This document shows, piece after piece, positions 2,830 through 36,226 of a stretch of 36,226 bases of DNA. This stretch comes from a virus. Under the pieces are notes generated by a model. That model saw only the letters and a program-made list of their open reading frames with translations. It was not told the origin of the DNA and made no database searches. The stretch spans positions 1 through 36,226 of IMG/VR virus record IMGVR_UViG_3300045988_120291. One strand, given 5' to 3'. The position numbers were made by a program, and so were the translations under genes. How positions within the stretch are numbered: position 1 is the stretch's first letter; every line of letters begins with the position of its first letter.

Positions 2830-3561
2830 TCACCTCCCTCGTCGTCGTCCGAATACGGTCATCGTTGATTTACGCTGTTCGCGCCAACCATCCGTTATGG
2901 CGTCCATTGCCGCCTCGTGAGCTATGATCGCAGCCATGGCCGCGTCAATCTTTTGATGATCTTCGGGCTTGCCCAAAATGTACATCTGCCCGGGTTTGGC
3001 CACCTTTTTCGCGTTGGCCATTGCTTCCACAGTGAGTGGGCAGCCGTCATGTTTAATGCGACCTTGCCGTAGGTCCACCTCGAAACGCCGGATCGCCGCG
3101 TACATACGCTTGATTTGGTTTGTCGGCCATTCCAGCACCTGGCATCCCTCGCTGCCGTAGTTCAGTGCCCATTCGCCGATCTCTGAATACCAGTCTTGAG
3201 GGTCGCAGTACATGCGGCGCACCTGATAGCGGTTCATCATTTCATCTACAGCCGCGTGCACTTCATCGCGCGGGATTCGGCCGCCCCATTCTTCCGGCTT
3301 CCAGATTGTCGGCCGCCGATCCGGCCCATACCGCATTGTAAATATCCGGCCGTCGCGGGTCTTCATTTTAAGGGCTGTCCAGTCGTTGTTTTCCGACCCG
3401 TCAAACCCCACGCAGATCGGCGTGCCGTCTGGTGGGTTAGGCATCCATTCCATCATAGGCCCCTTCCCATATTCCATCAGGCAGCCATGCACCAGCACTG
3501 TAGGTGATCTTGTTCCCGAAAAAGCGTTCCGCCTGATCCGGGTCTGTCTCCGACAGCTCAT
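2830..3561 (-). CDS. terL: Terminase large subunit, C-terminal nuclease part. Real coding probably begins near 3462 after a frame change.
   Basis: Contains PPDGTPICVGFDGSENNDW and a downstream acidic motif (YCDPQDW) typical of the RNase H-like terminase nuclease. The ORF overlaps the ATPase ORF by 125 nt in another frame. Confidence 0.75.
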   Translation of the reverse strand: MSCRRQTRIRRNAFSGTRSPTVLVHGCLMEYGKGPMMEWMPNPPDGTPICVGFDGSENNDWTALKMKTRDGRIFTMRYGPDRRPTIWKPEEWGGRIPRDEVHAAVDEMMNRYQVRRMYCDPQDWYSEIGEWALNYGSEGCQVLEWPTNQIKRMYAAIRRFEVDLRQGRIKHDGCPLTVEAMANAKKVAKPGQMYILGKPEDHQKIDAAMAAIIAHEAAMDAITDGWREQRKSTMTVFGRRRGR

Positions 3562-4492
3562 TAGCTTCTGCTAGCACACCGTCAATAGGCACCCACGGGC
3601 TGCCCGTGTAGACGTGCTCTAGGATTTTCCGGCGGTCTGCCTTGCGGGACCATTTAAGCCCCTTTGGTGGCGGCTCGTAGAACTTGAAAACGTCTTCCAC
3701 CGTAGACAAATAGGTTCTCTGCGCCACGCTATTTTCAGACGAATCATATGCGTTGGTGGTTTCCAATGTTCGGCCACCCATACCGGCCGCACCACGGCGT
3801 TGCGCGTCGGCAACTGCCATCATTCTATTTCTTTTGGTCCACAGGCCCGTTTCGTCCTGCAAGACGAATGAGACGGGGTTACCCACACGGCTTGTTGCTG
3901 ATGACGTCACGACGTCGATACGGTCGGCCTTGTCGCCGCCCTCACCGCCAAGAATGCGGATAAACCCCTCACGGTCTGCCAGCCGCTCACTGAGTGGCCC
4001 CAATTCGATCATTGATCGTAAGGGCCTGTAGGTGTTGTCTACCTGATCCTCCGATGTGGCCGTGAGCTGAATCAGTGGTGAAGGGTGCGGCCGCCCCATT
4101 GGTTCGCCCGGCTCATAGAAGTACTCGAAGCCGCATCCACAGCCCCAATCACTGCACTTGTAAACCTCGTCACCCTGTGCCCAGCCGTCAAATTCCGACG
4201 GCCCCACAGCCATGACAGCAACGATAGACGCGGCCGCCGGTCCTTTGCCTGTCTTCTGCGGCCCCATGATCTGAGCGCGGCGATAATGGAAAGCCTGCGA
4301 CCTGAGTGGTTCGCCTTCCCATTTCAGCCCCTCACGAATGCGGCCGAGGTTAGCGAAACACCAAAATTGCCAGTCGGACCACTCGAATGGTTCACCACGC
4401 CGATAGCCGTCTGGTATGCGGCAATGAGCGAAAACCCATGCATCCCATAGGTCGCCAAGGGTGGGAAAGTTCACAACCCATTTCGTGGCCAT
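3437..4492 (-). CDS. terL: Terminase large subunit, N-terminal ATPase part
   Basis: Walker A-like GPQKTGKGP and Walker B-like FVLQDETG. ATG at 4492 overlaps the small terminase stop (TAATG). It ends prematurely at 3437, just before the nuclease domain. Confidence 0.8.
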   Translation of the reverse strand: MATKWVVNFPTLGDLWDAWVFAHCRIPDGYRRGEPFEWSDWQFWCFANLGRIREGLKWEGEPLRSQAFHYRRAQIMGPQKTGKGPAAASIVAVMAVGPSEFDGWAQGDEVYKCSDWGCGCGFEYFYEPGEPMGRPHPSPLIQLTATSEDQVDNTYRPLRSMIELGPLSERLADREGFIRILGGEGGDKADRIDVVTSSATSRVGNPVSFVLQDETGLWTKRNRMMAVADAQRRGAAGMGGRTLETTNAYDSSENSVAQRTYLSTVEDVFKFYEPPPKGLKWSRKADRRKILEHVYTGSPWVPIDGVLAEANELSETDPDQAERFFGNKITYSAGAWLPDGIWEGAYDGMDA

Positions 4493-5812: not shown

Positions 5813-6472
5813 TCAACTCTTCACCCGTTTCAGCACGTCACCAATGTTAACGCGGCCCGCCCCATCAACACGCACATGCCCCCGCGCTATCCACTGCCGC
5901 AGCGTCCCCGGCTTCACATCAACGGCGAACAGCGTGCGCAACACATCCACAGCTACACTTCGCGCCACCCACTCAACCACAGCGTCCCCGATCTTGTCGG
6001 AACTCACGGGCGCTTGATCCATGCCTAATCGGCGCTCAAACCGGCCCACAGCCGCATCAAACCCATTAACCGCATCAATCACCCTCACATCGCCCCCCAA
6101 CCCGTCTATGAGGCTCACAGCGCCTGATTCAACAACACCGGCCGCATACTCACACATCATGCACGCCATACGCCTCACCCGGCCCGCATCACGCAGACTA
6201 GGAACCACCTCAGCCCCGATCAACGAACCGACCATCAAACCCAGCCCCTCAGCAACCGTGATCCGATCATCCACCAAACCAATGTTGCACGGCGGCCGCG
6301 AACCAAACCCACCACCATGCACGCCCCCATCAGATGAACCACTCACCCCGAACTCATTGATCAACTCACACTCACCCCACCAATCACGAACAAACTCACA
6401 ACAAGAAAGAAACCTATCAAGGGAAACATCACAAGAAGACAAAACAAAACCCTTAGAAAGAACAACCAACAA
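5813..6472 (-). CDS. Putative DNA-binding protein with a C-terminal MerR/excisionase-like HTH. Start codon uncertain.
   Basis: The C-terminus VDVKPGTLRQWIARGHVRVDGAGRVNIGDVLK looks like an HTH. The ORF-track start is a TTG directly after an in-frame stop. The coding strand is extremely G+T-rich. Confidence 0.4.
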   Translation of the reverse strand: MLVVLSKGFVLSSCDVSLDRFLSCCEFVRDWWGECELINEFGVSGSSDGGVHGGGFGSRPPCNIGLVDDRITVAEGLGLMVGSLIGAEVVPSLRDAGRVRRMACMMCEYAAGVVESGAVSLIDGLGGDVRVIDAVNGFDAAVGRFERRLGMDQAPVSSDKIGDAVVEWVARSVAVDVLRTLFAVDVKPGTLRQWIARGHVRVDGAGRVNIGDVLKRVKS

Positions 6473-6540
6473 CTACAGGTAGTAGCTTACCAAAATCTCT
6501 ATTCCAGTAAAGAACATTGAAGGTAGTAATAAAGGTCTCC

Positions 6541-6565
6541 CCGACCCGACCCGACCCGACCCGAC
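6541..6565. repeat. Pentanucleotide tandem repeat (CCGAC)x5
   Basis: ccgacccgacccgacccgacccgac read directly, flanked by partial units. Confidence 0.9.
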
Positions 6566-6816
6566 CCGGTGGCAATGAAATAACCCACCCCTCCACCTTG
6601 GACATGTCCAGGCCACGTTACCCAACATGCTACCTGGTTTTGCGCACACCAAACCGGCGACCACCAAAAGGACAGTTTTCACCCAATCCACGCAAACGCC
6701 GAAAAAAAATCGCAAGCTACGCCACCATCTCGGCAACGCAACTTAAAAAAGACAAAGCTTCGCCAAATATAATCAGCAAAGCTTTTCAACAAAAGCGTTC
6801 GCCATGAGCTAAACCA

Positions 6817-7026
6817 CTACCGGCCGGTACTAGTCGCCTCACCACAGATCAGCCGCACTACACGACCCCGGCCACCGGCTACACGACGCCAAGCCACAAA
6901 AGACCCGGCGCGCCAATGGAGGGCACCCTTTTCCGCAGCCACCTGGCAAGGCCACGGACACGGAGACGCCGCACCGCGTTGGATACGCGGCCGCTCATTT
7001 CGTGCGTTAGTTTCCAATATTGTCAT
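6817..7026 (-). CDS. Hypothetical small Arg-rich protein (weak call)
   Basis: 69-aa ORF whose ATG overlaps the upstream stop as ATGA, suggesting translational coupling. No recognisable motif. Confidence 0.3.
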   Translation of the reverse strand: MTILETNARNERPRIQRGAASPCPWPCQVAAEKGALHWRAGSFVAWRRVAGGRGRVVRLICGEATSTGR

Positions 7027-8132
7027 CGCCTTTTTCGTTCGCTCATGCTGGTTTGCTGAGTCCGGCCATATGCGCGGCCACCATGGGTGTTCCCTAGATT
7101 CCTCGGGTTTACTGCGGTCGTGTTCCCGCCACCGGCAGAACCTACACCCCTCCTCGGTTTTACGCTTCCCATACGGGGGCCACCGTCAGAGTTGGTTTTA
7201 CGCTGCGTTTTTCCGGCGCGCCGTTGCCTTCCGTTTGCCTGCCTTCCGCTTTCGCCACGGTCTTTATCAGGATCAGACGCCACCATATTAAACCGCTGGC
7301 TGCGGCTAGGTGACTCATGGTCGGCTTTCTTTCTTCTAGTAGTTACCTTTTTCGTGTGCGGGGTTTCCCAGGCGTGGTTTCGCGGGGAATCCTCTATCAA
7401 TGCGCAATCCTTTTTATCGTCGAGGGGATTAGGCACATTGAGTTTTCGGGCCACACGGCTCGTTACGCTAGGCCATTTGCTCAATTGCTCTACCAGACCC
7501 GGGCCGTAAACCGGCTGGACCGGCGGGTCTAGGAGTGGGAACTCCTCATCAGGGTTAACCGAAGCGGCACGGCCTTCATTGCACGCAGAACATGCAACAA
7601 CGAAAGTGGCCGGTGTCGTCGGCGAGTCTATATCTCGATGGTCGAAAGTCTGTCCTCGATCAGACCGGGTATCGCCCCATACGACATCGACGCCGCAATA
7701 CCTACACTGGTCCCCATCCCTAAACAGAACAGGAACCACAAGAGAAGCCTTACGGCGATCGTTCTTCCTTTTATCTGCCTTCTTCTTATCATCCGACCTA
7801 ATCAGGTGCACAAAATTGACGTCATCCAGCAGCATGTAGGTTTTAACATCCCCATCATCACTCTGACCATGGGGGAGCTTTGGGGTGAGCACCCCAATAG
7901 CAATTAGGTCGTTAATAACCTCTTGATGACCCGCAATGCCGACAGTCTGAATAACCATACCTTTGGTCACCTCATAATCTGTCCAAGCCACTGCGGAAGA
8001 AATAAACAAGGCCGTAGTAACGCCCTTGAGTTTGATCACCAGAGACTCATCTCCTCTAGTCGCGGCCAATTCAGCCGCCCACATCCAAACCTTGTGGTCA
8101 TTGAAAGTATCGGAAAATCGTGCCCAGGACAT
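7023..8132 (-). CDS. HNH-motif protein with a long basic, low-complexity C-terminal tail. A replication or recombination role is possible.
   Basis: 369-aa ORF with RDGDQCRYCG ... FDHRDI ... ACSACN (HNH-like). The C-terminal ~120 aa are rich in R/K/G/S. Confidence 0.65.
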   Translation of the reverse strand: MSWARFSDTFNDHKVWMWAAELAATRGDESLVIKLKGVTTALFISSAVAWTDYEVTKGMVIQTVGIAGHQEVINDLIAIGVLTPKLPHGQSDDGDVKTYMLLDDVNFVHLIRSDDKKKADKRKNDRRKASLVVPVLFRDGDQCRYCGVDVVWGDTRSDRGQTFDHRDIDSPTTPATFVVACSACNEGRAASVNPDEEFPLLDPPVQPVYGPGLVEQLSKWPSVTSRVARKLNVPNPLDDKKDCALIEDSPRNHAWETPHTKKVTTRRKKADHESPSRSQRFNMVASDPDKDRGESGRQANGRQRRAGKTQRKTNSDGGPRMGSVKPRRGVGSAGGGNTTAVNPRNLGNTHGGRAYGRTQQTSMSERKRR

Positions 8133-8292: not shown

Positions 8293-8326
8293 AACCTACA
8301 CAACACTTGCGTGGCCACGCAAGTGT
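8293..8326 (-). promoter_or_regulatory. Sigma70-like promoter overlapped by a perfect 24-bp palindrome
   Basis: Minus strand: -35 TTGCGT (8322..8317), 18-nt spacer, -10 TAGGTT (8298..8293). The palindrome ACACTTGCGTGGCCACGCAAGTGT spans 8303..8326. A G8 tract lies just upstream (8328..8335). Confidence 0.5.
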
Positions 8327-8346: not shown

Positions 8347-9063
8347 CTATGCAGGTGCAAACCTCGGCTGCTTCACCCCCACACGCCGCACACCATCAGA
8401 CGAACCAGCACCCGAACCACCGGGGCGCGCCGGGCTGTTTTCGGCGGCGTCTTCCTTTGATTCTCTGGCGAACAGGCAAGCGTTGATGCACTGCATCCGC
8501 GCATAGATACCGGTTGTTCCATCATGATTTTTGCGTGCGGATACAGTGAGCTGTGCGGTTTCTTCTGCGGCCATTATCGCTATCGTTCGGGCCGCATCAG
8601 CCCCGATTGTGAAGCTTTCATTTTCCACACTGATATGGTCGCAGTTCGGCATAATCAGCGCGTTTACCGCATCGCTGTATTCCGATGCTTTCACTACGAC
8701 GCTATCGCATTTTTCCGGCTCCATTGCTTCATCCTTGACAAGCATTGTCTCAGGCATTGGGCAAATGCTGACTTCCGACGCTTCACCTTCTTCATTCACC
8801 GTCGGCTTTATGCTTCTCATGATATGCGCGGCGGCATCTGCGGTGATTTCCCATTCCTTACCACGCGCATCATCATCACCAAAAATAATCGGCACATGCG
8901 CCGTGAAATGCATCGTCTTTGCCCTGCCCGTGACACTCACAATGTCTTTGGCTGTTCGCAGCGTCACCTTTTTATCGACGCCCTTTTTCGCCACGGCCGC
9001 AGCAATTTTCAACGCCTTCATCATCTCAGCAGCCTTTACGACCACAACGTTTTTCTTTTCCAT
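8347..9063 (-). CDS. Hypothetical protein
   Basis: 238-aa ORF with protein-like composition and SD GGAAGGAAA upstream. The antisense ORFs have implausible composition. Confidence 0.65.
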   Translation of the reverse strand: MEKKNVVVVKAAEMMKALKIAAAVAKKGVDKKVTLRTAKDIVSVTGRAKTMHFTAHVPIIFGDDDARGKEWEITADAAAHIMRSIKPTVNEEGEASEVSICPMPETMLVKDEAMEPEKCDSVVVKASEYSDAVNALIMPNCDHISVENESFTIGADAARTIAIMAAEETAQLTVSARKNHDGTTGIYARMQCINACLFARESKEDAAENSPARPGGSGAGSSDGVRRVGVKQPRFAPA

Positions 9064-9076
9064 TTCGTTTTCCTTC

Positions 9077-9802
9077 CTACCCGAATTGCAGCACTTGCTG
9101 TCCTAGACGCTTTGCGATTACCTCGCAGTACCGTTCTTCCAATTCAATCGCAATGACTTTTTGACCTAGATTCCTAGCGGCGACCACCGTGGCCCCGGTT
9201 CCCGCGAATGGATCAACGATGGTACGGCCACGCGGCATCCGCTCAATCAATCTTTCCATCAACCTCACAGGCTTAACAGTTGGGTGCCTGAACTTGTTTT
9301 CTTCACCATGCGACCCGCCACGCAGACCATCAACTGCAAGCACAGACCCGGCGCGCTTGAACCGGTATGGGCTGATTGCTTCTTCCATGTTCCACGCTTT
9401 TCCCAGCATGTGGATTTCCTCGTGCGAGTGCCCGAAGGGTGATTTTAGGTTTCCCATTCCTGGTGTTCCTGTTTTCCACCACACGAGTCGGTTTACTTCC
9501 CCTTCTGGGGGTTGTACTCGCCATGTTCCAAATACAACTCCAGCGGAGTTCTTGCACCCCGGCGTGTTGTCATATTCTAGCCATTCTCTGATTGCGGCGT
9601 CGCGTAACTCGGTTGATTCATCTCCTTTTACTCTCCATCCTTTTTCGTTTTTCCCTCTATACCCTGACTTGTACCCCATTCCATAGGGGGGGTCGGTCAC
9701 GAGGTTACGGTGTGGTACCCAGATTGGCAGTAGCTCAGGGCTGAGCGCGTCGCCATGGTATATTGCCACGCCGTCGATCTCATAGAATGGCTGCGGTGCC
9801 AC
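9077..9802 (-). CDS. DNA methyltransferase, beta-class (N6-adenine or N4-cytosine)
   Basis: A DPPYG motif lies N-terminal and FAGTGAT (the AdoMet-binding FxGxG) C-terminal; this order is that of the beta group. GTG start with SD GGAGAGG. Confidence 0.8.
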   Translation of the reverse strand: MAPQPFYEIDGVAIYHGDALSPELLPIWVPHRNLVTDPPYGMGYKSGYRGKNEKGWRVKGDESTELRDAAIREWLEYDNTPGCKNSAGVVFGTWRVQPPEGEVNRLVWWKTGTPGMGNLKSPFGHSHEEIHMLGKAWNMEEAISPYRFKRAGSVLAVDGLRGGSHGEENKFRHPTVKPVRLMERLIERMPRGRTIVDPFAGTGATVVAARNLGQKVIAIELEERYCEVIAKRLGQQVLQFG

Positions 9803-10319
9803 TGTCCACCTCTCCCAATGCTTCCAGGCTTTCCTTTGCCGCTTTCGCGGCTTCTTCCAAGGCTTTCGCGGCGGTGCTCAGCTTCGATGCAAAATCTTCG
9901 AGGCGTATTTGTGCATCGATTACGACTAGTGCTTCTTCATAAGAAACCTTTATTGGCTTATCGTCATCCACAAAGACACTTCCGTCTTCCCAGTCAAGCT
10001 CCACCATCCATGTGTTACCCGGCGCGCATATTTCTTCTGGATCGAAAATATCTCCCCCGCAATCTTCGATACATTCGCACACTAGACATATGTTAGTTTC
10101 TGTCGCATAGCCCCCACACCATTCGCTCATTATGTGCAGTTCGTCATGATTGTAGTAGCCACTACGCTCGTACTCATTGCCTAGTTTTCTTTTTTCTTCC
10201 TCTGTGCATTTTTCGCACTCGTGCCATGAATGCTGATCCTCACGACATGGGCAGTAAACGACTTCCCAGTTCCCTTCATCCGATATTTTTACAATGTGGG
10301 ACTTGTCTACTTTCGACAT
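9780..10319 (-). CDS. Hypothetical acidic Cys-rich protein
   Basis: 179-aa ORF with CPC...HECEKC and CLVCECIEDC clusters. AGATTGGA lies 8 nt upstream of the ATG. Confidence 0.65.
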   Translation of the reverse strand: MSKVDKSHIVKISDEGNWEVVYCPCREDQHSWHECEKCTEEEKRKLGNEYERSGYYNHDELHIMSEWCGGYATETNICLVCECIEDCGGDIFDPEEICAPGNTWMVELDWEDGSVFVDDDKPIKVSYEEALVVIDAQIRLEDFASKLSTAAKALEEAAKAAKESLEALGEVDSGTAAIL

Positions 10320-10322
10320 TTT

Positions 10323-10733
10323 TTAAATCCAATCTCCTACGATGCCTGTACAGTCGATACTTTCAGCTTGTTTTATAATTTCTTCCATTGCTCTTTCGCT
10401 CAGGACTGCAAATAATTCTTTCCCCTCGATTTGCCATTCACCGTGATTTCTTTGGCTTACTTTGTGCATTGACCCGAAGATCATTACACCTATAGTGTCT
10501 TTTCCGGTCTTCCAGAAAATATCCGACAGCGCTTCCAAAATGCTTACTTCCCAGAATCTTTTTCGCTCTAGGAGAAGTTTGCCCGCAAAGTTACGGTGCT
10601 CTTCCACACCCATCATCCGAAAATCAGTCATGTGCTGTTCGGTCATGCCCTGCCGTGCGACAAGCTTCACGCCGCCACCTACGTCATCCAGGACGACCCG
10701 GAACTGATCTGGTCTTTCTTCACTCTTCCACAT
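10323..10733 (-). CDS. Hypothetical protein
   Basis: 136-aa ORF packed tightly in the early minus-strand operon. Confidence 0.6.
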   Translation of the reverse strand: MWKSEERPDQFRVVLDDVGGGVKLVARQGMTEQHMTDFRMMGVEEHRNFAGKLLLERKRFWEVSILEALSDIFWKTGKDTIGVMIFGSMHKVSQRNHGEWQIEGKELFAVLSERAMEEIIKQAESIDCTGIVGDWI

Positions 10734-11127: not shown

Positions 11128-11369
11128 GTATCAAAATGGCAAGTATACAGCCGCTCTCGCCGAAGGTGTGCTATTTCCACTTCACCGGCCCGCAGATACT
11201 CTGCACGTCCGCACGATATTCGCCAATGCCCATCATCTGAATGAACAAGATTCAACGGCATGTTTTTACCCGCAACCGTTTTCACCCACCTTATCGGCTC
11301 TCCGCAATCACGGCAAAGCGCATTCGGCGGCCTTCTTCCCTCATCCCACATTTCGTTGATCCACTTCAT
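11097..11369 (-). CDS. Hypothetical zinc-ribbon-like protein
   Basis: 90-aa ORF with CRDCGEP ... CHFDTC Cys pairs. Confidence 0.55.
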   Translation of the reverse strand: MKWINEMWDEGRRPPNALCRDCGEPIRWVKTVAGKNMPLNLVHSDDGHWRISCGRAEYLRAGEVEIAHLRRERLYTCHFDTCKKKVRQWR

Positions 11370-11607
11370 GAATCATTTCCCTTAGCGCCTTACTTGAGTC
11401 GTAGATACATGAGAATACGACCGCTTCCACCACTCTAGCCATTCCACGGAAACTACTTCTCATTACTCGCGCATAGGTTTCGTCTTTTTCTCGATTTACA
11501 AATTCCTCTGTCACCTCTTCTACGAACAGGGCAACCTGATTCGCAAAATCAGCATCTCTTTCAATTTTCCCATCAAGCTTCCAACCGAGCTTTTCCTCTA
11601 AGCTCAT
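11341..11607 (-). CDS. Hypothetical protein, first gene of the early minus-strand operon. Start revised to the ATG at 11607.
   Basis: The track ORF begins at 11691 inside a G9 tract and the promoter. The ATG at 11607 (MSLEEKLGW...) is preceded by AGATTGGAGAT 8 nt upstream, the same leader seen in other genes. Confidence 0.55.
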   Translation of the reverse strand: MSLEEKLGWKLDGKIERDADFANQVALFVEEVTEEFVNREKDETYARVMRSSFRGMARVVEAVVFSCIYDSSKALREMIHEVDQRNVG

Positions 11608-11647
11608 TTCCGATCTCCAATCTTTCCAATCGATTTGGACAATGCAC

Positions 11648-11676
11648 ACTTTATCCATCACGGCATGGCCACGCAA
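11648..11676 (-). promoter_or_regulatory. Sigma70-like early promoter carrying half of the palindrome
   Basis: Minus strand: TTGCGT (11676..11671), 17-nt spacer, TAAAGT (11653..11648). A G9 tract lies upstream (11681..11689). It shares GCTTGCGTGGCCA with the 8303..8326 site. Confidence 0.5.
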
Positions 11677-11759: not shown

Positions 11760-11788
11760 TTTACAAATCTTCCGCGTTTTTCTAAATT
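11760..11788 (+). promoter_or_regulatory. Sigma70-like promoter for the plus-strand island
   Basis: TTTACA (11760..11765), 17-nt spacer, TAAATT (11783..11788). It is divergent from the early minus-strand promoter. Confidence 0.45.
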
Positions 11789-11830
11789 GACACTTGTCGC
11801 CAAACGGTGGCGGCAGATTGGAAAAGCGAT

Positions 11831-11980
11831 ATGTTCATCTTTGACTTACTAGCCCCCCTGTGTGGCGGCGTCGGCTTCACATCCATTGTCCTAATGAGTG
11901 CCGCCGCAATCTACAAAACTGTTACGGATTACGGCAACTTGACCTACACGGAAGGAACTCACCCTGATGATCACATTTAA
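11831..11980 (+). CDS. Small hydrophobic protein (49 aa) with a predicted single transmembrane helix. It is not in the ORF track.
   Basis: My translation: MFIFDLLAPLCGGVGFTSIVLMSAAAIYKTVTDYGNLTYTEGTHPDDHI, stop TAA at 11978..11980. CAGATTGGA lies 8 nt upstream of the ATG. It overlaps the next ATG by 14 nt. Confidence 0.45.
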   Translation: MFIFDLLAPLCGGVGFTSIVLMSAAAIYKTVTDYGNLTYTEGTHPDDHI

Positions 11981-12398
11981 CCTGCGCGGACTTCCTCAGC
12001 CCATACGGTCCACCGGCCTCATCAGCGCACTAGTCGAGCACTATAAACGAATCATAGCGGTAGAGAAGCACCCCGTATCGCCGAATATCCTTGTCATTGA
12101 CCCGGCAACCGGAACTGTGATCGGCGAAGTGCAAAACCTCACTGGCGAAGACGAAACCAACTCTGATCCTGATTACGCAGCTTTTCGCATTCGGCAAGCG
12201 CACACGCAAGAACGCAAGCTACAGATGGAACTGCGAGCAGCGAAAGCGCACAAGAAGCAGCTCATCCGCGAAGCCGTAAGCCTTAAACTGCTCACCTACC
12301 GCAACATCGCTGATCTTCTTCACCAAACGCCGCAGAACATCCGCAGCATTGCCCAACCCTCACCCTCAGAACTAGGAACGACCCATGCAAAATCTTGA
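11967..12398 (+). CDS. Hypothetical protein with a C-terminal HTH-like segment
   Basis: 143-aa ORF. LLTYRNIADLLHQTPQNIRSIAQ resembles an HTH. SD GGAAGGAA upstream. Confidence 0.6.
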   Translation: MITFNLRGLPQPIRSTGLISALVEHYKRIIAVEKHPVSPNILVIDPATGTVIGEVQNLTGEDETNSDPDYAAFRIRQAHTQERKLQMELRAAKAHKKQLIREAVSLKLLTYRNIADLLHQTPQNIRSIAQPSPSELGTTHAKS

Positions 12399-12831
12399 CA
12401 GCGCTAAATTCGTCGAGTCCCTTCTCAATGAAGAAGTCTTCCAGCTTCCTACTTCCGCAGACGATGAATTTCAAAAGCTAGTTGATTCTGGCAAGAAGCT
12501 AACCGAATCCCTCGCGGAAAGCCTCAACTTACAAACCCTTGCCGATCTCAAAGAATCAAACCCCCATAACCCCGTGTACATGGCGTGCCCACTAAACCCC
12601 TCAATGCCAGTGATGCACAGCGAAACGCAAAGCTACGCGCTTTCACTGACACTGAATAAGCGCACCGCTGGAAACACGCCGGGAATTGACGTCTACACCC
12701 TGTCTGCATACCCCGTATGCACCAGTCTAACCGGCTGCTACGTGCGCCACATAGTCGGATTCCCGAGCCTGCTTAACCAAATCGCACGTCTCGACGTCTT
12801 CGGCATCGATAGGTTTATAGATTCGCTCTAG
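12385..12831 (+). CDS. Hypothetical protein
   Basis: 148-aa ORF with a 14-nt overlap on the upstream gene and protein-like composition. Confidence 0.6.
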   Translation: MQNLDSAKFVESLLNEEVFQLPTSADDEFQKLVDSGKKLTESLAESLNLQTLADLKESNPHNPVYMACPLNPSMPVMHSETQSYALSLTLNKRTAGNTPGIDVYTLSAYPVCTSLTGCYVRHIVGFPSLLNQIARLDVFGIDRFIDSL

Positions 12832-12838
12832 CCGCTCC

Positions 12839-12986
12839 GACCTGCAACAATAAGCGCGCATCACCCCCAAATAAGGGCAACACACAACCAATGCATTGCG
12901 TGGCCACGCAACGGGTGATACAGTGAAAGACGTCCACAACAAAGGGGAACAAACCCCACACCAGATTGGAGATAAGCAATGAGCAC
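12839..12986 (+). repeat. Repeat A, copy 1 (partner at 15177..15320): an intergenic promoter/operator/leader module
   Basis: Hand alignment with copy 2 gives 12 mismatches and one 4-nt indel over about 144 positions. The repeat runs into the first codons (ATGAGCAC). Confidence 0.9.
12896..12924 (+). promoter_or_regulatory. Extended -10 promoter overlapped by a perfect 16-bp palindrome
   Basis: TTGCGT (12896..12901), 17-nt spacer, TGATACAGT with -10 TACAGT (12919..12924). Palindrome TTGCGTGGCCACGCAA at 12896..12911. Confidence 0.55.
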
Positions 12987-13281
12987 ACCCTACACATTCA
13001 CCCACCCAAGCCCCGGCGTTTTCGAGGCACACTACAGTGATCAAACGTTCGCAATCCTGGAACGCCATACCTGCGTTTCCTCAGTCGCCGGAACCGTTGA
13101 TAACCGCGAACTTTGGGTTATCGTCGATCCGCTCCAGGAGGCCAACATCAACACCCGCGACCTGAACTGCATCTACCACATCTGCGAAGGATTCCCAACC
13201 TACAAAGCCGCCGCAGCAAAAGCATGGGAAAACTACAACACGTACGGCGTCGCCCTTCCTATCGGTATTGCCGACTGCTGA
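12979..13281 (+). CDS. Hypothetical small protein (100 aa)
   Basis: The ORF follows repeat A. CAGATTGGAGAT lies 8 nt upstream of the ATG. Confidence 0.6.
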   Translation: MSTPYTFTHPSPGVFEAHYSDQTFAILERHTCVSSVAGTVDNRELWVIVDPLQEANINTRDLNCIYHICEGFPTYKAAAAKAWENYNTYGVALPIGIADC

Positions 13282-13284
13282 GAA

Positions 13285-13360
13285 CAAGCGCCCGGGGTGA
13301 GCGCACAATCACCCCCCACCCGGCGCGCGGCCACCGGAACAACGGCCGCAGATTGGATTT
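13285..13360 (+). repeat. Repeat B, copy 1 (partner at 15655..15731): an intercistronic double-hairpin element
   Basis: The first 31 nt are identical to copy 2 and the rest is near-identical with small indels. Hairpins: GGGGTGA/TCACCCC (13294..13315) and GCGGCC/GGCCGC (13327..13349). Confidence 0.9.
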
Positions 13361-13364
13361 GGTT

Positions 13365-13829
13365 ATGTATTCTTTGATTCCTGTTCCTGAGATGATTGTC
13401 CAGTCTGTTGACAGTCTTGATTGGTCTGCGGAGGTTCCGCGTGAATATGAGCCGCCTGTGTTTGGTTCGTGCGGGGCGTATAACACGGTTTTGACCGGCG
13501 ACGAGTTCTATTTGATCATGGACCGTTTGGCGATTTCGCCGCTTGATTTGTCACGGGCTACCGGCTTTCCTCAGACCAGCATCCTGTTTTGGAGGCGTTC
13601 TAAGCAAGTTCCTATGAATGTCGCGCTTACTGTTCGGCATCTACAGAAGCTCACTCACGGCGTCATCAATGCGCTTGATCACGTCACCGGGTGTTCATTC
13701 CACAACTACGGCTACCGCAGGATCGGCGATTTCTGGCTACCGGAATCGTGGTGGCGCATGTGCCTGGCCCGCAACTCTGAGCGCACGATCATGAAGGATT
13801 TTCACTACTCACATAAAAGGAGTCGCTAA
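13365..13829 (+). CDS. Hypothetical protein with an XRE-like HTH
   Basis: 154 aa from the ATG at 13365, after CAGATTGGA. LTGDEFYLIMDRLAISPLDLSRATGFPQTSILFWRRSKQVP resembles an XRE-family HTH. Confidence 0.6.
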   Translation: MYSLIPVPEMIVQSVDSLDWSAEVPREYEPPVFGSCGAYNTVLTGDEFYLIMDRLAISPLDLSRATGFPQTSILFWRRSKQVPMNVALTVRHLQKLTHGVINALDHVTGCSFHNYGYRRIGDFWLPESWWRMCLARNSERTIMKDFHYSHKRSR

Positions 13830-14546
13830 ATGTATACGGCATCTTTCCTGGAGTCTTGTGTGGCTCCCCATACCAGCGTGTACGATTCTTTCTCTGAAAC
13901 TTCCAAGCGTGTCATCTTCGGAAATGCTATCTCTATCGAGTTTTTCCCGCTAGATAAGCTTTTCTCTGTGGCCTTGGAAAATGATTCGATTGACACCTAT
14001 CGTGTCAATTTCCCTGATGATCGGCGGCGGCGTGATGAAGCGGCAGCACTCATTTCCTGGTTCGCTCATGTTGCGAATAAAACCAAGTCCCCCATTACCG
14101 ACAGTCTTCTGCATGGAACCATTCTGCCTAGCTGGTCTTCACAGTTGGCCCCGTTTGATCTTGACAATTTCCACATGCGCGGCGATTCAGTCTCATTGCT
14201 TTCTAGCCCTGCTGATTTCTTGCAATGTGGCTTATCGCATTTATGCGATGTGAGCATCAGCCTGTGTACTGATTCCCCACACGCCGCGATGGCTTCTTAT
14301 GGCGATTACAGCCTTATTCTTTCCTTCGATATAAGGAAATGCATTCTCACCAACGGCTACTACATTGGCAAGTTCTCTATCGAGGTTCGTGGCCCCGGTG
14401 CGTCCCCCATCGTGAAAGAAACAGGGCACTTTGTCACCCCATTCCACATCCTCAGTGATATTTGGGATTTCCGACACTTTGCCATTGAGCGCCTCCCCAT
14501 AACCAAAGAAGCGTGGAAAACGTACCGCGCAAACACAGAAGGATAA
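13830..14546 (+). CDS. Hypothetical protein
   Basis: 238-aa ORF. Its ATG directly abuts the upstream TAA. Confidence 0.6.
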   Translation: MYTASFLESCVAPHTSVYDSFSETSKRVIFGNAISIEFFPLDKLFSVALENDSIDTYRVNFPDDRRRRDEAAALISWFAHVANKTKSPITDSLLHGTILPSWSSQLAPFDLDNFHMRGDSVSLLSSPADFLQCGLSHLCDVSISLCTDSPHAAMASYGDYSLILSFDIRKCILTNGYYIGKFSIEVRGPGASPIVKETGHFVTPFHILSDIWDFRHFAIERLPITKEAWKTYRANTEG

Positions 14547-14551
14547 CTCCC

Positions 14552-15178
14552 ATGCCCTCCATGTTTTCACCCCTGTACCATCTGCGCTGTGTCGCTGAAA
14601 AACCGGCCCCCTACACGCGCACTGCCCATTGGTGGCGACGCTCGCTAGATATTCGCTTCTACTCATTTTTTGTTGACCGCAATACGCATTCCAGCTTTGC
14701 TACGGTCAACGGTCACACAATCACGATAGGCGACCACCCCAACCTATTCGCCGCCGGGTTCGACCCGTTCAAGAACGACATCAACTATGCCGTGTACACA
14801 ACTATCTGCGGGTTCTACACCTTCGAGCACGGCGGCATCAAGGACAAGGCCACAGCAAAGGCATACCTGCGCGAGACAACCCCATTCATCCTTGACCCTG
14901 AACCAAACCACCCTAACCGGCGATGGGATTTGATGCTCAAACAGCACCATATCGGGTTTGACCGTCTCACTGATGAAGGTATCAAGTTCCGCATCATTGA
15001 CAACTACCCGAACTCCACAAACAACCCCGATCCAATCAAGTTCAAGCGCGCCGTTGACTTGTGGGACATGCGCAAGCAAATCGCCGAATTTGAGACAGAA
15101 CGGCACCGCCTTCCCTACCCGCTCCCCTACGACTCCGCAATTCACCCTAGCCACGTCCTTGAATACATGCCGCGCTGA
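14552..15178 (+). CDS. Hypothetical protein. Start revised to the ATG at 14552.
   Basis: The track ORF starts at 14513 inside the upstream gene. The ATG at 14552 has GAAGGA upstream and gives 208 aa. Confidence 0.6.
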   Translation: MPSMFSPLYHLRCVAEKPAPYTRTAHWWRRSLDIRFYSFFVDRNTHSSFATVNGHTITIGDHPNLFAAGFDPFKNDINYAVYTTICGFYTFEHGGIKDKATAKAYLRETTPFILDPEPNHPNRRWDLMLKQHHIGFDRLTDEGIKFRIIDNYPNSTNNPDPIKFKRAVDLWDMRKQIAEFETERHRLPYPLPYDSAIHPSHVLEYMPR

Positions 15179-15320
15179 CCTGCAACAACAAGCACACACC
15201 ACCCCTAAATAAGGGCAACACACAACCAATGCGTTGCGTGGCCACACAACGGGTGATACAGTGAAACATGTCCACAAGGGGAACAAACCCCACACCAGAT
15301 TGGAGATTGGTAATGAGCAC
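15177..15320 (+). repeat. Repeat A, copy 2
   Basis: See copy 1. It begins within the stop codon of the upstream gene. Confidence 0.9.
15234..15262 (+). promoter_or_regulatory. Extended -10 promoter with the palindrome carrying one mismatch
   Basis: TTGCGT (15234..15239), 17-nt spacer, TGATACAGT (-10 at 15257..15262). Operator TTGCGTGGCCACACAA at 15234..15249. Confidence 0.55.
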
Positions 15321-15648
15321 CATCAACCTAGACACCCTCAATTGGGAATCCACCCCCGCAGAATGGGGCCTAACCTTCGGCGAAACCGCTAACCTGCCCG
15401 GCAGTGACCAGCGCGGCGGAAACGACATGATCCTTGACTTCGACCTTGACGGCACCCGCAAGGCACGCCTGGCAATCGATCCCGCACTTGTCGGCATGAA
15501 GACCCCACAGGGCATGGCTTTCAGTGATGACACGGCACACTGGCCCGTCCTGGATCGCGCATTCGGCCGCAAGCAATGGCAAGGCTTCCTCAGCCGCAAG
15601 ACCTCCGAAATGCTCAGCGACCTAGCCGATTGGGAACCAGAAGACTAA
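15313..15648 (+). CDS. Hypothetical small acidic protein (111 aa). Start revised to 15313.
   Basis: The ATG at 15313 is preceded by CAGATTGGAGAT at 8 nt. It shares the MST start with the copy-1 gene but has no other visible similarity to it. Confidence 0.6.
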   Translation: MSTINLDTLNWESTPAEWGLTFGETANLPGSDQRGGNDMILDFDLDGTRKARLAIDPALVGMKTPQGMAFSDDTAHWPVLDRAFGRKQWQGFLSRKTSEMLSDLADWEPED

Positions 15649-15654
15649 CCGCAT

Positions 15655-15731
15655 CAAGCGCCCGGGGTGAGCGCACAATCACCCCACAAACCCGGCGCGC
15701 GGCCACCGGACAACGGCCGCAGATTGGATTT
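15655..15731 (+). repeat. Repeat B, copy 2
   Basis: See copy 1. Confidence 0.9.
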
Positions 15732-15737
15732 CTTGTC

Positions 15738-16199
15738 ATGCACCTTCCTAGTGAGTCTTTTTCCACCCCCAAGATTAGGCTTTGCGACACCAACACCCCG
15801 CATGGGATTGTCCCCTCTGGACCTGATTCGCTTTATGACACGATTGAGCAGATGGTGTCTTCTGCGGGCACGATTCGGCCGGCGTTTTTGACGGCACATG
15901 AGCAGATCGCCGCGAACTATGGGCATGTTCTGGCATTGTTTTACGTTGTTCAGATTGTGCGTAACAAAGTTGCTGCTGATTCTCCTAACCCCAACGATCT
16001 GATTGCACTGAATGAGCTTTCCCGCGATTACTCAGCGCGCGCTAGGGGTTTGCACACTGCACTAGTTTCCCTCTACGGTCTTGTTGATGTTGACTTGGTT
16101 TCGCTGGCTGATGACGTTGCCGAATCCGCTCATCACATCGCTACTGAGCGCGCGGAATGGCTTTTCAAGAAGCCCGGTTTTTCCATCTCTGATCTGTAG
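15738..16199 (+). CDS. Hypothetical protein (153 aa). Start revised to 15738.
   Basis: ATG after repeat B and CAGATTGGATTT. The ORF ends 25 nt before the bidirectional terminator. Confidence 0.6.
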   Translation: MHLPSESFSTPKIRLCDTNTPHGIVPSGPDSLYDTIEQMVSSAGTIRPAFLTAHEQIAANYGHVLALFYVVQIVRNKVAADSPNPNDLIALNELSRDYSARARGLHTALVSLYGLVDVDLVSLADDVAESAHHIATERAEWLFKKPGFSISDL

Positions 16200-16224
16200 A
16201 AACACCCCTGAAACGCAAAAATAA

Positions 16225-16243
16225 CCCCCACCATTGGTGGGGG
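16225..16243. terminator. Bidirectional intrinsic terminator at the convergent junction
   Basis: CCCCCACC / GGTGGGGG stem flanked by AAAAATAA upstream and CTTTCTTATT downstream. It lies between the plus-strand island and the minus-strand lysis genes. Confidence 0.7.
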
Positions 16244-16260
16244 CTTTCTTATTGCCGTGG

Positions 16261-35870: not shown

Positions 35871-36226
35871 CTATTCTCGGCCCATATTCATATTGCGGGC
35901 AATTGCTTCGGCGAATGAGCGCGGCTTTGCCGCAGCGTCCCCACCCTTCCCCTGAGTGGGGTCTTGCGGGGCACGATCAAACCCCAATGCCTTCGACAAT
36001 GCTTCTGCATCAGCGCGGCGTTCTTCCGGCGTCTCACCCATGATCCGGTGCGCCATTGTTTCAGGAATCTTGAACTCCTTGCACAATTCGCCGCGCTCAT
36101 GTTTCAGTTTCATTTCGGCGTTTTCTGCCATGAGTTTATCAACGCGGGCTTTCCACTCTTGTTCAGCGACGGCCGCACGTTCTTCCTCTGACATTTTAGA
36201 TTTTTCGTATTCATCCAGCTTTTTCT
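35871..36226 (-). CDS. Scaffolding protein, 3' (C-terminal) part. The ORF is open to the window end and continues from 290..1.
   Basis: The track ORF 35871..36194 starts at an internal Met. The frame stays open through 36226 and joins the 290..1 segment across the 55-bp overlap. Confidence 0.6.
   Translation of the reverse strand, partial: KKLDEYEKSKMSEEERAAVAEQEWKARVDKLMAENAEMKLKHERGELCKEFKIPETMAHRIMGETPEERRADAEALSKALGFDRAPQDPTQGKGGDAAAKPRSFAEAIARNMNMGRE

Follow-up and report, generated by a model that had tools for sequence, protein, structure and literature searches.

A repeated intergenic cassette with a putative promoter and a candidate operator, in front of unrelated small genes of an uncultured actinobacterial siphovirus

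The promoter-early stem-loop (PeSL) cassettes of T4-type phages are repeated intergenic units that extend from an upstream stop codon to the Shine-Dalgarno (SD) sequence and start codon of the next gene, carry a promoter of the sigma-70 type whose -35 and -10 hexamers have an inverted repeat between or over them, accompany ORFans in a variable region of the genome, and recombine with one another (Arbiol et al. 2010, PMC2839356; Comeau et al. 2014, PMC4122927). In Cluster K mycobacteriophages, the SAS/ESAS elements contain a conserved, asymmetric 13-bp motif, GGGATAGGAGCCC, which includes an SD sequence, lies 3-7 bp upstream of the start codons of non-structural genes of different families and often follows an inverted repeat; a DNA- or RNA-binding factor is suspected to act there (Pope et al. 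2011, PMC3203893). Here we analyse an element with likenesses to both, a direct repeat named Repeat A, which occurs in two full copies in the IMG/VR virus record IMGVR_UViG_3300045988_120291 (positions 1 to 36,226; this whole stretch of 36,226 nt is referred to as the window).

In temperate actinophages, a repressor site lying over the -35 or the spacer of several promoters may be repeated around the genome, as is the case for the CIRs of phiC31 and for the Pleft operator and stoperators of L5. The stoperators are asymmetric and number about 30, and the CIRs are 17-bp sites of a different sequence. Morons are reportedly units of promoter, gene and terminator found in phage genomes. Repeated promoter-operator regions are therefore a well-known kind of phage sequence, and the arrangement described below appears to be a fairly ordinary case of accessory-gene co-regulation. 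We propose, with moderate confidence, that Repeat A is a co-regulating promoter/operator cassette and that sequence is exchanged between its copies.

Anatomy of Repeat A and its conservation in relatives

The genes of the window lie nearly all on the minus strand, apart from those of an island at about 11800-16200 that reads rightward; the proteins of this island gave no family match in either Pfam or PHROGs. Both full copies of Repeat A, A1 and A2, are found in this island, and each is followed by a small gene (X1 or X2), a second repeat (Repeat B) and a further gene (Y1 or Y2). The elements are the following.

12832-12986, plus strand: A1, the whole intergenic region from the stop codon of 12385-12831 to the first codons of X1 (12979-13281)
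15179-15320, plus strand: A2, from the stop codon of 14513-15178 to the first codons of X2 (15313-15648)
12839-12895 and 15177-15233, plus strand: upstream block, with the core AATAAGGGCAACACACAACCAAT at -42 to -64
12896-12901 and 15234-15239, plus strand: putative -35 hexamer TTGCGT
12916-12924 and 15254-15262, plus strand: putative extended -10 TGATACAGT, with hexamers at 12919-12924 and 15257-15262, after a 17-nt spacer
12896-12911, no strand assigned: 16-bp palindrome of A1, TTGCGTGGCCACGCAA, perfect, overlapping the -35 and the spacer, with its centre near -27.5; candidate operator
15234-15249, no strand assigned: palindrome of A2, TTGCGTGGCCACACAA, with one mismatch; the commoner, imperfect allele
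12944-12957 and 15278-15291, plus strand: leader hairpin GGGGAACAAACCCC (GGGG-AACAAA-CCCC)
12962-12973 and 15296-15307, plus strand: extended SD motif CAGATTGGAGAT (12962-12981 and 15296-15315 when the ATG is included)
13285-13360, plus strand: Repeat B copy 1 (B1), between X1 and Y1; two GC-rich hairpins and then CAGATTGGATTT
15655-15731, plus strand: Repeat B copy 2 (B2), between X2 and Y2 (15738-16199)

A repeat finder returned the pair as two segments, 12831-12939 with 15169-15277 (109 nt, 90%) and 12942-13003 with 15276-15337 (62 nt, 82%), and the offsets of 2338 and 2334 show that a single 4-nt indel separates A1 from A2. Between stop and start codons the copies share 130 matches, with 12 mismatches and one indel (about 91% identity), and the first codons, ATGAGCAC, are common to both. 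An earlier note, made from the sequence of the window, had described a direct repeat of about 145 bp with 12 mismatches and one 4-nt indel, and our recount is identical; the -35, spacer, -10, palindrome, hairpin, SD motif and first codons that it listed all lie where it had placed them. Its statement that the repeat is conserved far above the neighbouring coding DNA also holds; the flanking proteins are unrelated (X1 against X2, E=0.56; Y1, 13365-13829, against Y2, E=38), and the similarity of A1 and A2 ends exactly at the stop and start codons. The note did not include Repeat B, a partial copy on the minus strand (11605-11676), a further perfect palindrome at 8307-8322, or the minority status of the perfect palindrome, all of which are treated below. 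Each A-X-B succession looks like one of two look-alike, moron-like units. A mobile element, of the miniature inverted-repeat transposable element or MPME-like kind, was considered for A-X-B and rejected, as inspection of the sequence revealed neither terminal inverted repeats nor target duplications around it.

Searches of the island and of Repeat A by megablast and blastn against 50,697 phage records gave no match, and no isolate phage was similar. Relatives were found in IMG/VR and in metagenome assemblies, where they form a clade whose nucleotide identity with the window is 83-94%. Both loci are covered by ten more contigs (L004, L011, L012, L014, L022, L024, L025, L026, L031 and L037). All ten keep A1, A2, B1 and B2, with A1 and A2 spaced by 2333-2383 bp, and the order of genes is the same in all 11 genomes. 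The core of the upstream block, AATAAGGGCAACACACAACCAAT, is nearly invariant among related copies, and this block is a candidate UP-like element or site for an accessory protein.

The identities of the copies carry no locus-specific signal, given that paralogues within a genome (mean 90.5%), orthologues (91.0%) and cross pairs (90.0%) are alike. The promoter core occurs as two alleles, alpha (CACGCAA with TAAGCT) and beta (CACACAA with TACAGT); genomes differ in whether they have these at A1, A2 or both loci, and recombinant forms are found too. Moreover, the spacers between the ribosome-binding site and the ATG are specific to the genome and common to its two copies (CCGCAATG in L031, TGGAAATG in L004, CGGAAATG in L037). 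This combination of shuffled alleles and shared, genome-specific spacers points to concerted evolution by exchange between the repeats. The earlier note had suggested that the repeats could mediate deletion or exchange; the shuffling of alleles between loci bears out the exchange, and deletion of the four intervening genes, some 2.3 kb, was seen in none of the 11 genomes spanning both loci. Contigs of 33.8 kb that end inside A1 or B1 were examined as deletion variants and set aside as assembly breaks at repeats.

Contig L022 is a natural variant in both copies:

7520-7600 of VALL22-1_SAMEA10741384 scaffold_363: A1 variant, about 31 nt lost between CCAC repeats, so that the palindrome lacks its right end and the -10 is gone
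9830-9960 of VALL22-1_SAMEA10741384 scaffold_363: A2 variant, 13 nt lost, including the -35 and the left half-site; X2 intact

X1 of this genome carries a 1-nt frameshift. As its A1 has lost the -10, the putative promoter and the gene have decayed together.

Putative promoters, palindrome and candidate regulator

The sequence TTGCGT-N17-TANNNT occurs three times in the window, against 0.16 expected. Beyond A1 and A2, the comparison involves the following sites.

11605-11676, minus strand: P2, a partial third copy of Repeat A, before the first leftward early gene (11341-11607)
8293-8322, minus strand: P1, with a perfect palindrome (8307-8322), a putative -35 TTGCGT (8322-8317) and a putative -10 TAGGTT (8298-8293)
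11760-11788, plus strand: a separate putative promoter of the rightward island, TTTACA-17-TAAATT, with no palindrome

P2 consists of TTGCGT (11676-11671), a 17-nt spacer, TAAAGT (11653-11648), GTCCA, AGATTGGAGAT (11623-11613) and ATGAGC (11607-11602), and its position, between divergent genes, is the one at which the leftward early operon has to start. Even L012 and L014, in which identity elsewhere in the region falls to only about 70%, keep P2 with its TTGC, spacing, TAAAGT, leader and SD. P1 lies between two leftward genes, upstream of 7023-8132; its spacer is 18 nt in the window and 17 nt in relatives, its leader has a GGGG..CCCC hairpin of its own (8223-8211), and its palindrome extends to about 26 bp in the window. 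Homopolymer tracts rich in G stand directly 5' of the -35 on the minus strand at both P1 (8323-8335) and P2 (11677-11690), with 5-10 G across relatives. At the island promoter, 11760-11788, the hexamers are conserved in relatives and the spacer has diverged, a signature like that of P2 and Repeat A and one to be expected of working SigA-type promoters.

Twenty-eight related copies of Repeat A retain a -10, which reads TACAGT in 16, TAAGCT in 10 and TACGGT in 2. Its T1, A2 and T6 are invariant and positions 3-5 vary; the distance to the -35 is 17 nt throughout, and the preceding TG(A) is kept in all copies except A1 of L012. The hexamers agree with the SigA/sigma-70 pattern, both in TANNNT (the Repeat A hexamers, TAAAGT at P2 and TAGGTT at P1) and in TTGNNN at 16-18 nt, with TTGCGT at 17 nt in the A copies and P2 and at 17-18 nt in P1. 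The invariant TA...T with free inner bases, the fixed spacing and the recurrence of the core at P2 together argue strongly for promoter activity of Repeat A, and the promoter and leader cassette that had been read from the window alone is thus well supported by the comparative data. Transcription from A1 would start at about 12930-12932.

With up to three mismatches allowed, the palindrome occurs four times in the window against 0.42 expected, and none of 100 shuffled sequences reached four. A1, A2 and P1 each have it across the -35 and spacer, P2 has a half-site, and, as had been noted before, it is perfect in the first copy of Repeat A and has one mismatch in the second. At P1, the identical 16-mer is embedded in flanks unrelated to Repeat A, in five aligned genomes and also in L022 and L024, so that the palindrome is a discrete element. 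Its variants are uncompensated single changes (G13A, T6C) or central ones (positions 8 and 9; P1 of L012 and L021), which fits a protein site better than an RNA stem on the plus strand. Since the centre is near -27.5, a bound dimer would occlude RNA polymerase. A role as operator is plausible and is the most likely one for this sequence, and we hold the operator function and the identity of the binding protein with moderate to weak confidence. At P1 the palindrome may double as an attenuator in the manner of PeSL, as it follows directly after a stop codon and is extended to about 26 bp. The upstream block was also considered for additional half-sites; 8-mers with one mismatch proved too common to be informative (85 found, 52 expected). 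An exact search for the palindrome in IMG/VR recovered one true relative; the matches in L002 and L003 were due to chance, these records being unrelated by blastn and tblastx.

The best candidate for a protein that binds the palindrome is Y1:

13365-13829, plus strand: Y1, 154 amino acids (aa), a remote Xre-type helix-turn-helix (HTH) protein with a C-terminal DGW...LPESWWR-like motif, in the A1 unit

A HMMER search with a Y1 profile found small proteins with an ISG..LR..R..LGLS..DLA..LG......W......IP segment and a C-terminal DGW...LPESWWR, two of which pass the Pfam models HTH_3/HTH_31. The hhalign comparison gave Y1 a probability of 97.6% and E=3e-12 over residues 43-138. Helices at 45-96 in an AF2 model are compatible with an Xre bundle, at low confidence (pLDDT 46, too poor for a fold search). 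As Y1 is encoded in the A1 unit, autoregulation of A1 is plausible. Three HTH proteins had been proposed as binders in the earlier note, and of these only 13365-13829 gained support. No HTH was found in 5813-6472, nor by Pfam or PHROGs in gp143 (11967-12398), whose AF2 model (pLDDT 68) had no match in the Protein Data Bank (PDB) by Foldseek; sequence searches of the PDB with Y1 and gp143 gave nothing relevant. The nearest homologue of Y1 outside the clade (P0043, L040) lies in a context that is unrelated and shares no motifs.

We suggest that Repeat A would act as a complete initiation cassette, with an upstream block, a SigA/sigma-70 extended -10 promoter, the palindrome, a leader of about 48 nt that includes a small hairpin, an extended SD motif and ATG-AGC, placed before the two unrelated ORFan genes X1 and X2 of the rightward accessory island. 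A reduced form at P2 would drive 11341-11607, the first gene of the leftward early operon. Repeat B, in which a double GC hairpin is joined to the ribosome-binding site of the next gene, comes after each X gene as part of the unit. A dimeric phage regulator at the palindrome would block RNA polymerase, and P1, A1 and A2 would be switched together; if that regulator is Y1, made from the A1 unit, A1 would be autoregulated. Purifying selection and repeated exchange, by gene conversion or recombination, would keep the copies alike.

Repeat B and the competing explanations

Repeat B (about 76 bp) is nearly invariant across 17 copies from related genomes and, like Repeat A, is conserved above the surrounding coding DNA. 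Its end, CAGATTGGATTT, is the ribosome-binding site of the next gene (13365-13829 for B1), and two stable stems are predicted (-33 kcal/mol). Terminators lacking a U tract are reported in Actinobacteria. Considered as an intrinsic terminator, Repeat B has no U tract, its tail being AGAUUGGAUUU, and a terminator scan of the plus strand made no call; a role as attenuator or stabiliser is weakly suggested. The extended SD motif AGATTGGA(G), which offers extra complementarity to the 3' end of 16S rRNA, occurs nine times in the window, and eight of these lie just before start codons (at 10335, 11623, 11815, 12963, 13350, 15297, 15721 and 32050). The genes that use it belong mostly to the island and the early region, and the motif usually comes directly after a GC hairpin.

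Several observations count against a promoter/operator cassette switched by one regulator. TTGCGT matches only three of the six bases of the Escherichia coli -35 consensus TTGACA, and because of this a generic promoter scan of the window did not list the Repeat A sites. The imperfect palindrome, TTGCGTGGCCACACAA, is the form found in 16 of 27 intact related copies, as compared with 10 of 27 for the perfect one. At P2, only the left half is present in the window, in the relative R and in L011, and the palindrome is entirely absent in L012 and L014. L022 has lost it at both A copies, yet that genome appears complete, with the P1 palindrome intact. A single palindrome is common to all genomes, and its link with Y1 is one of position only. 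The most invariant stretches, namely the upstream block and Repeat B, are left unaccounted for by the promoter/operator model, and RNAalifold found no compensatory pairs in 11 A copies (both strands) and 8 B copies, so that RNA structure is neither supported nor refuted. The dimeric-repressor operator that had been suggested for the palindrome is therefore upheld in part: the identical 16-mer at P1 and the adjacent gene for an Xre-type HTH protein speak for it, while the imperfect majority allele, the half or missing site at P2 and the loss in L022 speak against it.

It is conceivable that the palindrome is instead a terminator or attenuator stem-loop for upstream transcription, within a PeSL-like composite cassette in which Repeats A and B provide homology for the shuffling of ORFans. 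The succession of stop codon, promoter, stem-loop at -35/-10, SD and start, beside ORFans in a plastic region, matches PMC2839356, and alleles are shuffled between loci. In addition, a terminator scan flagged the palindrome on the minus strand, and at P1 it lies 25 nt past the stop codon of 8347-9063 on the transcribed strand, where it makes a 12-13-bp stem in the window that is followed by a U/G-rich tract. In the sense (plus) strand of A1 and A2, however, the majority allele interrupts a 6-bp stem with a central C.A mismatch, and no U tract follows, which argues against a terminator on that strand. The sequence of the 16-mer is itself conserved at all sites, beyond mere pairing; genomes hold 2-4 sites, compared with about 50 in T4-type phages; and in none of the 11 genomes does A or B mark the boundary of an indel, a replacement or a deletion. 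We regard this explanation as unlikely, though one to be kept in mind.

A different function for the same parts would be processive antitermination, with the leader hairpin as a recruitment site in the nascent RNA and Repeat B as a terminator through which the modified polymerase would pass to express Y1 and Y2. The order of promoter, hairpin, first gene, double GC hairpin and downstream genes, duplicated like PL-nutL/PR-nutR, would suit it, as would the near invariance of Repeat B; moreover, a hairpin with an A/C-rich loop recurs at the same place in the leaders of a second clade (with another stem; see below) and in the leader of P1 (with the stem shifted in L012). The comparison with lambda nut and HK022 put is one of analogy, and neither an N/Q-like protein nor a put-like fold was identified. 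Rfam 15 gave no match at the gathering score over the window and none at E<=1 over 12780-13420, Repeat B shows neither a U tract nor covariation, and the z-scores of the RNA folds are unremarkable (-0.1 to -2.0). This makes antitermination very unlikely in our view. It is hardly credible that A1 and A2 are functionally neutral relics of a segment that was duplicated recently and has since had its coding parts replaced. An identity of about 91% is what a recent duplication would leave, but both copies are kept in all 11 genomes, which differ by about 10% elsewhere, the similarity stops at stop and start codons, TA...T is kept with the inner -10 bases free, and elements of the repeat recur at P1 and P2 in other contexts. 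A broader and rather improbable idea is that, in actinobacterial siphoviruses, A and B form a mobile or exchangeable regulatory bracket, either as the first PeSL-like system outside T4-type phages, with A-X-B units traded by recombination between their identical control regions, or as a readthrough module like lambda nut, with the leader hairpin carrying polymerase through Repeat B. Such a bracket, if real, would account for the stronger constraint on the non-coding flanks than on the genes that they enclose.

The co-regulating promoter/operator cassette with exchange between copies remains the reading that we prefer, and PeSL is its nearest counterpart in function and anatomy. The differences are that Repeat A belongs to an actinobacterial siphovirus and PeSL to T4-like myoviruses of Gram-negative hosts, that two full and two partial copies are present per genome, that the inverted repeat is a single fixed, operator-like sequence in contrast to the variable GC stems of PeSL, that a long conserved leader and a separate Repeat B are present, and that neither mini-circles nor cassette-bounded indels were observed, only allele exchange. 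The 3' part comes nearest to SAS/ESAS, but its motif is (C)AGATTGGA(GAT) and not GGGATAGGAGCCC, making the two analogous in position only; copies are also fewer here, the promoter is within the repeat, and the upstream inverted repeats differ by site. Neither in its sequence nor in its copy number or demonstrated behaviour does the cassette belong to PeSL or SAS. Compared with phiC31 and L5, the operator is a candidate and the window lineage is without integrase. The A-X-B layout is that of a moron, namely a small gene with its own putative promoter and a downstream hairpin in a region that is, in temperate relatives, a lysogeny module directly behind the repressor gene. It departs from a moron in that both units share identical control sequences and the terminator is only a candidate.

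If correct, these results would provide a first regulatory map for the lineage, with four or five promoters, three of them with one palindromic site, and a candidate Xre-type regulator, together a small circuit open to direct tests. They would also offer a clean natural example of the concerted evolution of control regions around unrelated ORFans. The case is relevant to the ways in which phages acquire accessory genes and bring them under common control, and it overturns nothing that is known.

Temperate relatives and the wider genome

A second, temperate clade (clade 2: L006/L008, L009, L010 and L016-L020) shares with the window clade X2 (56-62% aa identity), X1 (48%), the tail fibre and, in part, the endolysin (L006/L008, 64% aa). 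These genomes have no Repeat A, no Repeat B and no palindrome. Their island runs in the order repressor-like HTH gene, promoter, X2, hairpin, X1, xis, int and attP, and the X2 leader has a GGC-AAACAA-GCC hairpin, with a different stem, at the position of GGGG-AACAAA-CCCC. Because X2 and X1 are adjacent behind one promoter in clade 2, the window lineage must have divided the pair and copied the control region, so that each gene received its own. In L009, the segment 8098-11130 holds a 124-aa repressor-like HTH gene, X2 and X1, xis, a tyrosine integrase gene and an attP with a tRNA 3' end. The clade-2 repressor promoter has a palindrome of its own, GTGACCTCAaaTGAGGTTAC, between -35 and -10, and its mRNA appears to be leaderless.

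The window has an exact 55-bp terminal repeat (bases 1-55 are identical to 36172-36226) and is therefore a circularly closed (permuted) assembly of a genome of about 36,171 bp. Its gene products include an SPP1-type portal, a terminase, a tape measure protein of 2116 aa and an M23+GH25 endolysin similar to LysA proteins of Mycobacteriales phages. The phage is a small siphovirus of Actinobacteria whose lineage is uncultured and otherwise unannotated. Its host is probably Corynebacterium or another member of the Mycobacteriales, in view of the LysA-like endolysin and a GC content of about 55%. Among genome contigs, a host search with an X2 profile gave no match, and a search with the tRNA 3' end of the clade-2 attP gave none with a pattern that included CCA and was probably too strict.

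Between the rightward island and the convergent lysis genes lies a strong bidirectional terminator (16223-16245, CCCCCACCATTGGTGGGGG), with T runs on both sides. The non-coding gap at 6473-7022 (550 bp) is strongly strand-skewed (AT skew +0.39, GC skew -0.36). Tandem (GGGTC)x5 copies lie at about 6540-6568 in it, together with a T8 run and an isolated TTGCGTGG half-site (6688-6695), and the gap is a possible origin, packaging site or late promoter region.

The large terminase (2830-4492, minus strand) is encoded by overlapping open reading frames in different frames, an ATPase part at 3437-4492 (phrog_19179) and a nuclease part at 2830-3561 (phrog_21277). Since the terminase of relatives is likewise called in two parts (351 aa and 207 aa), this arrangement suggests a genuine split or a programmed frameshift and not a sequencing error. 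Finally, an N6/N4 DNA methyltransferase gene (9077-9802) is full length in the window (241 aa), and in some close relatives (L025 and L027, 3110-3442) the gene call covers a fragment of 110 aa.

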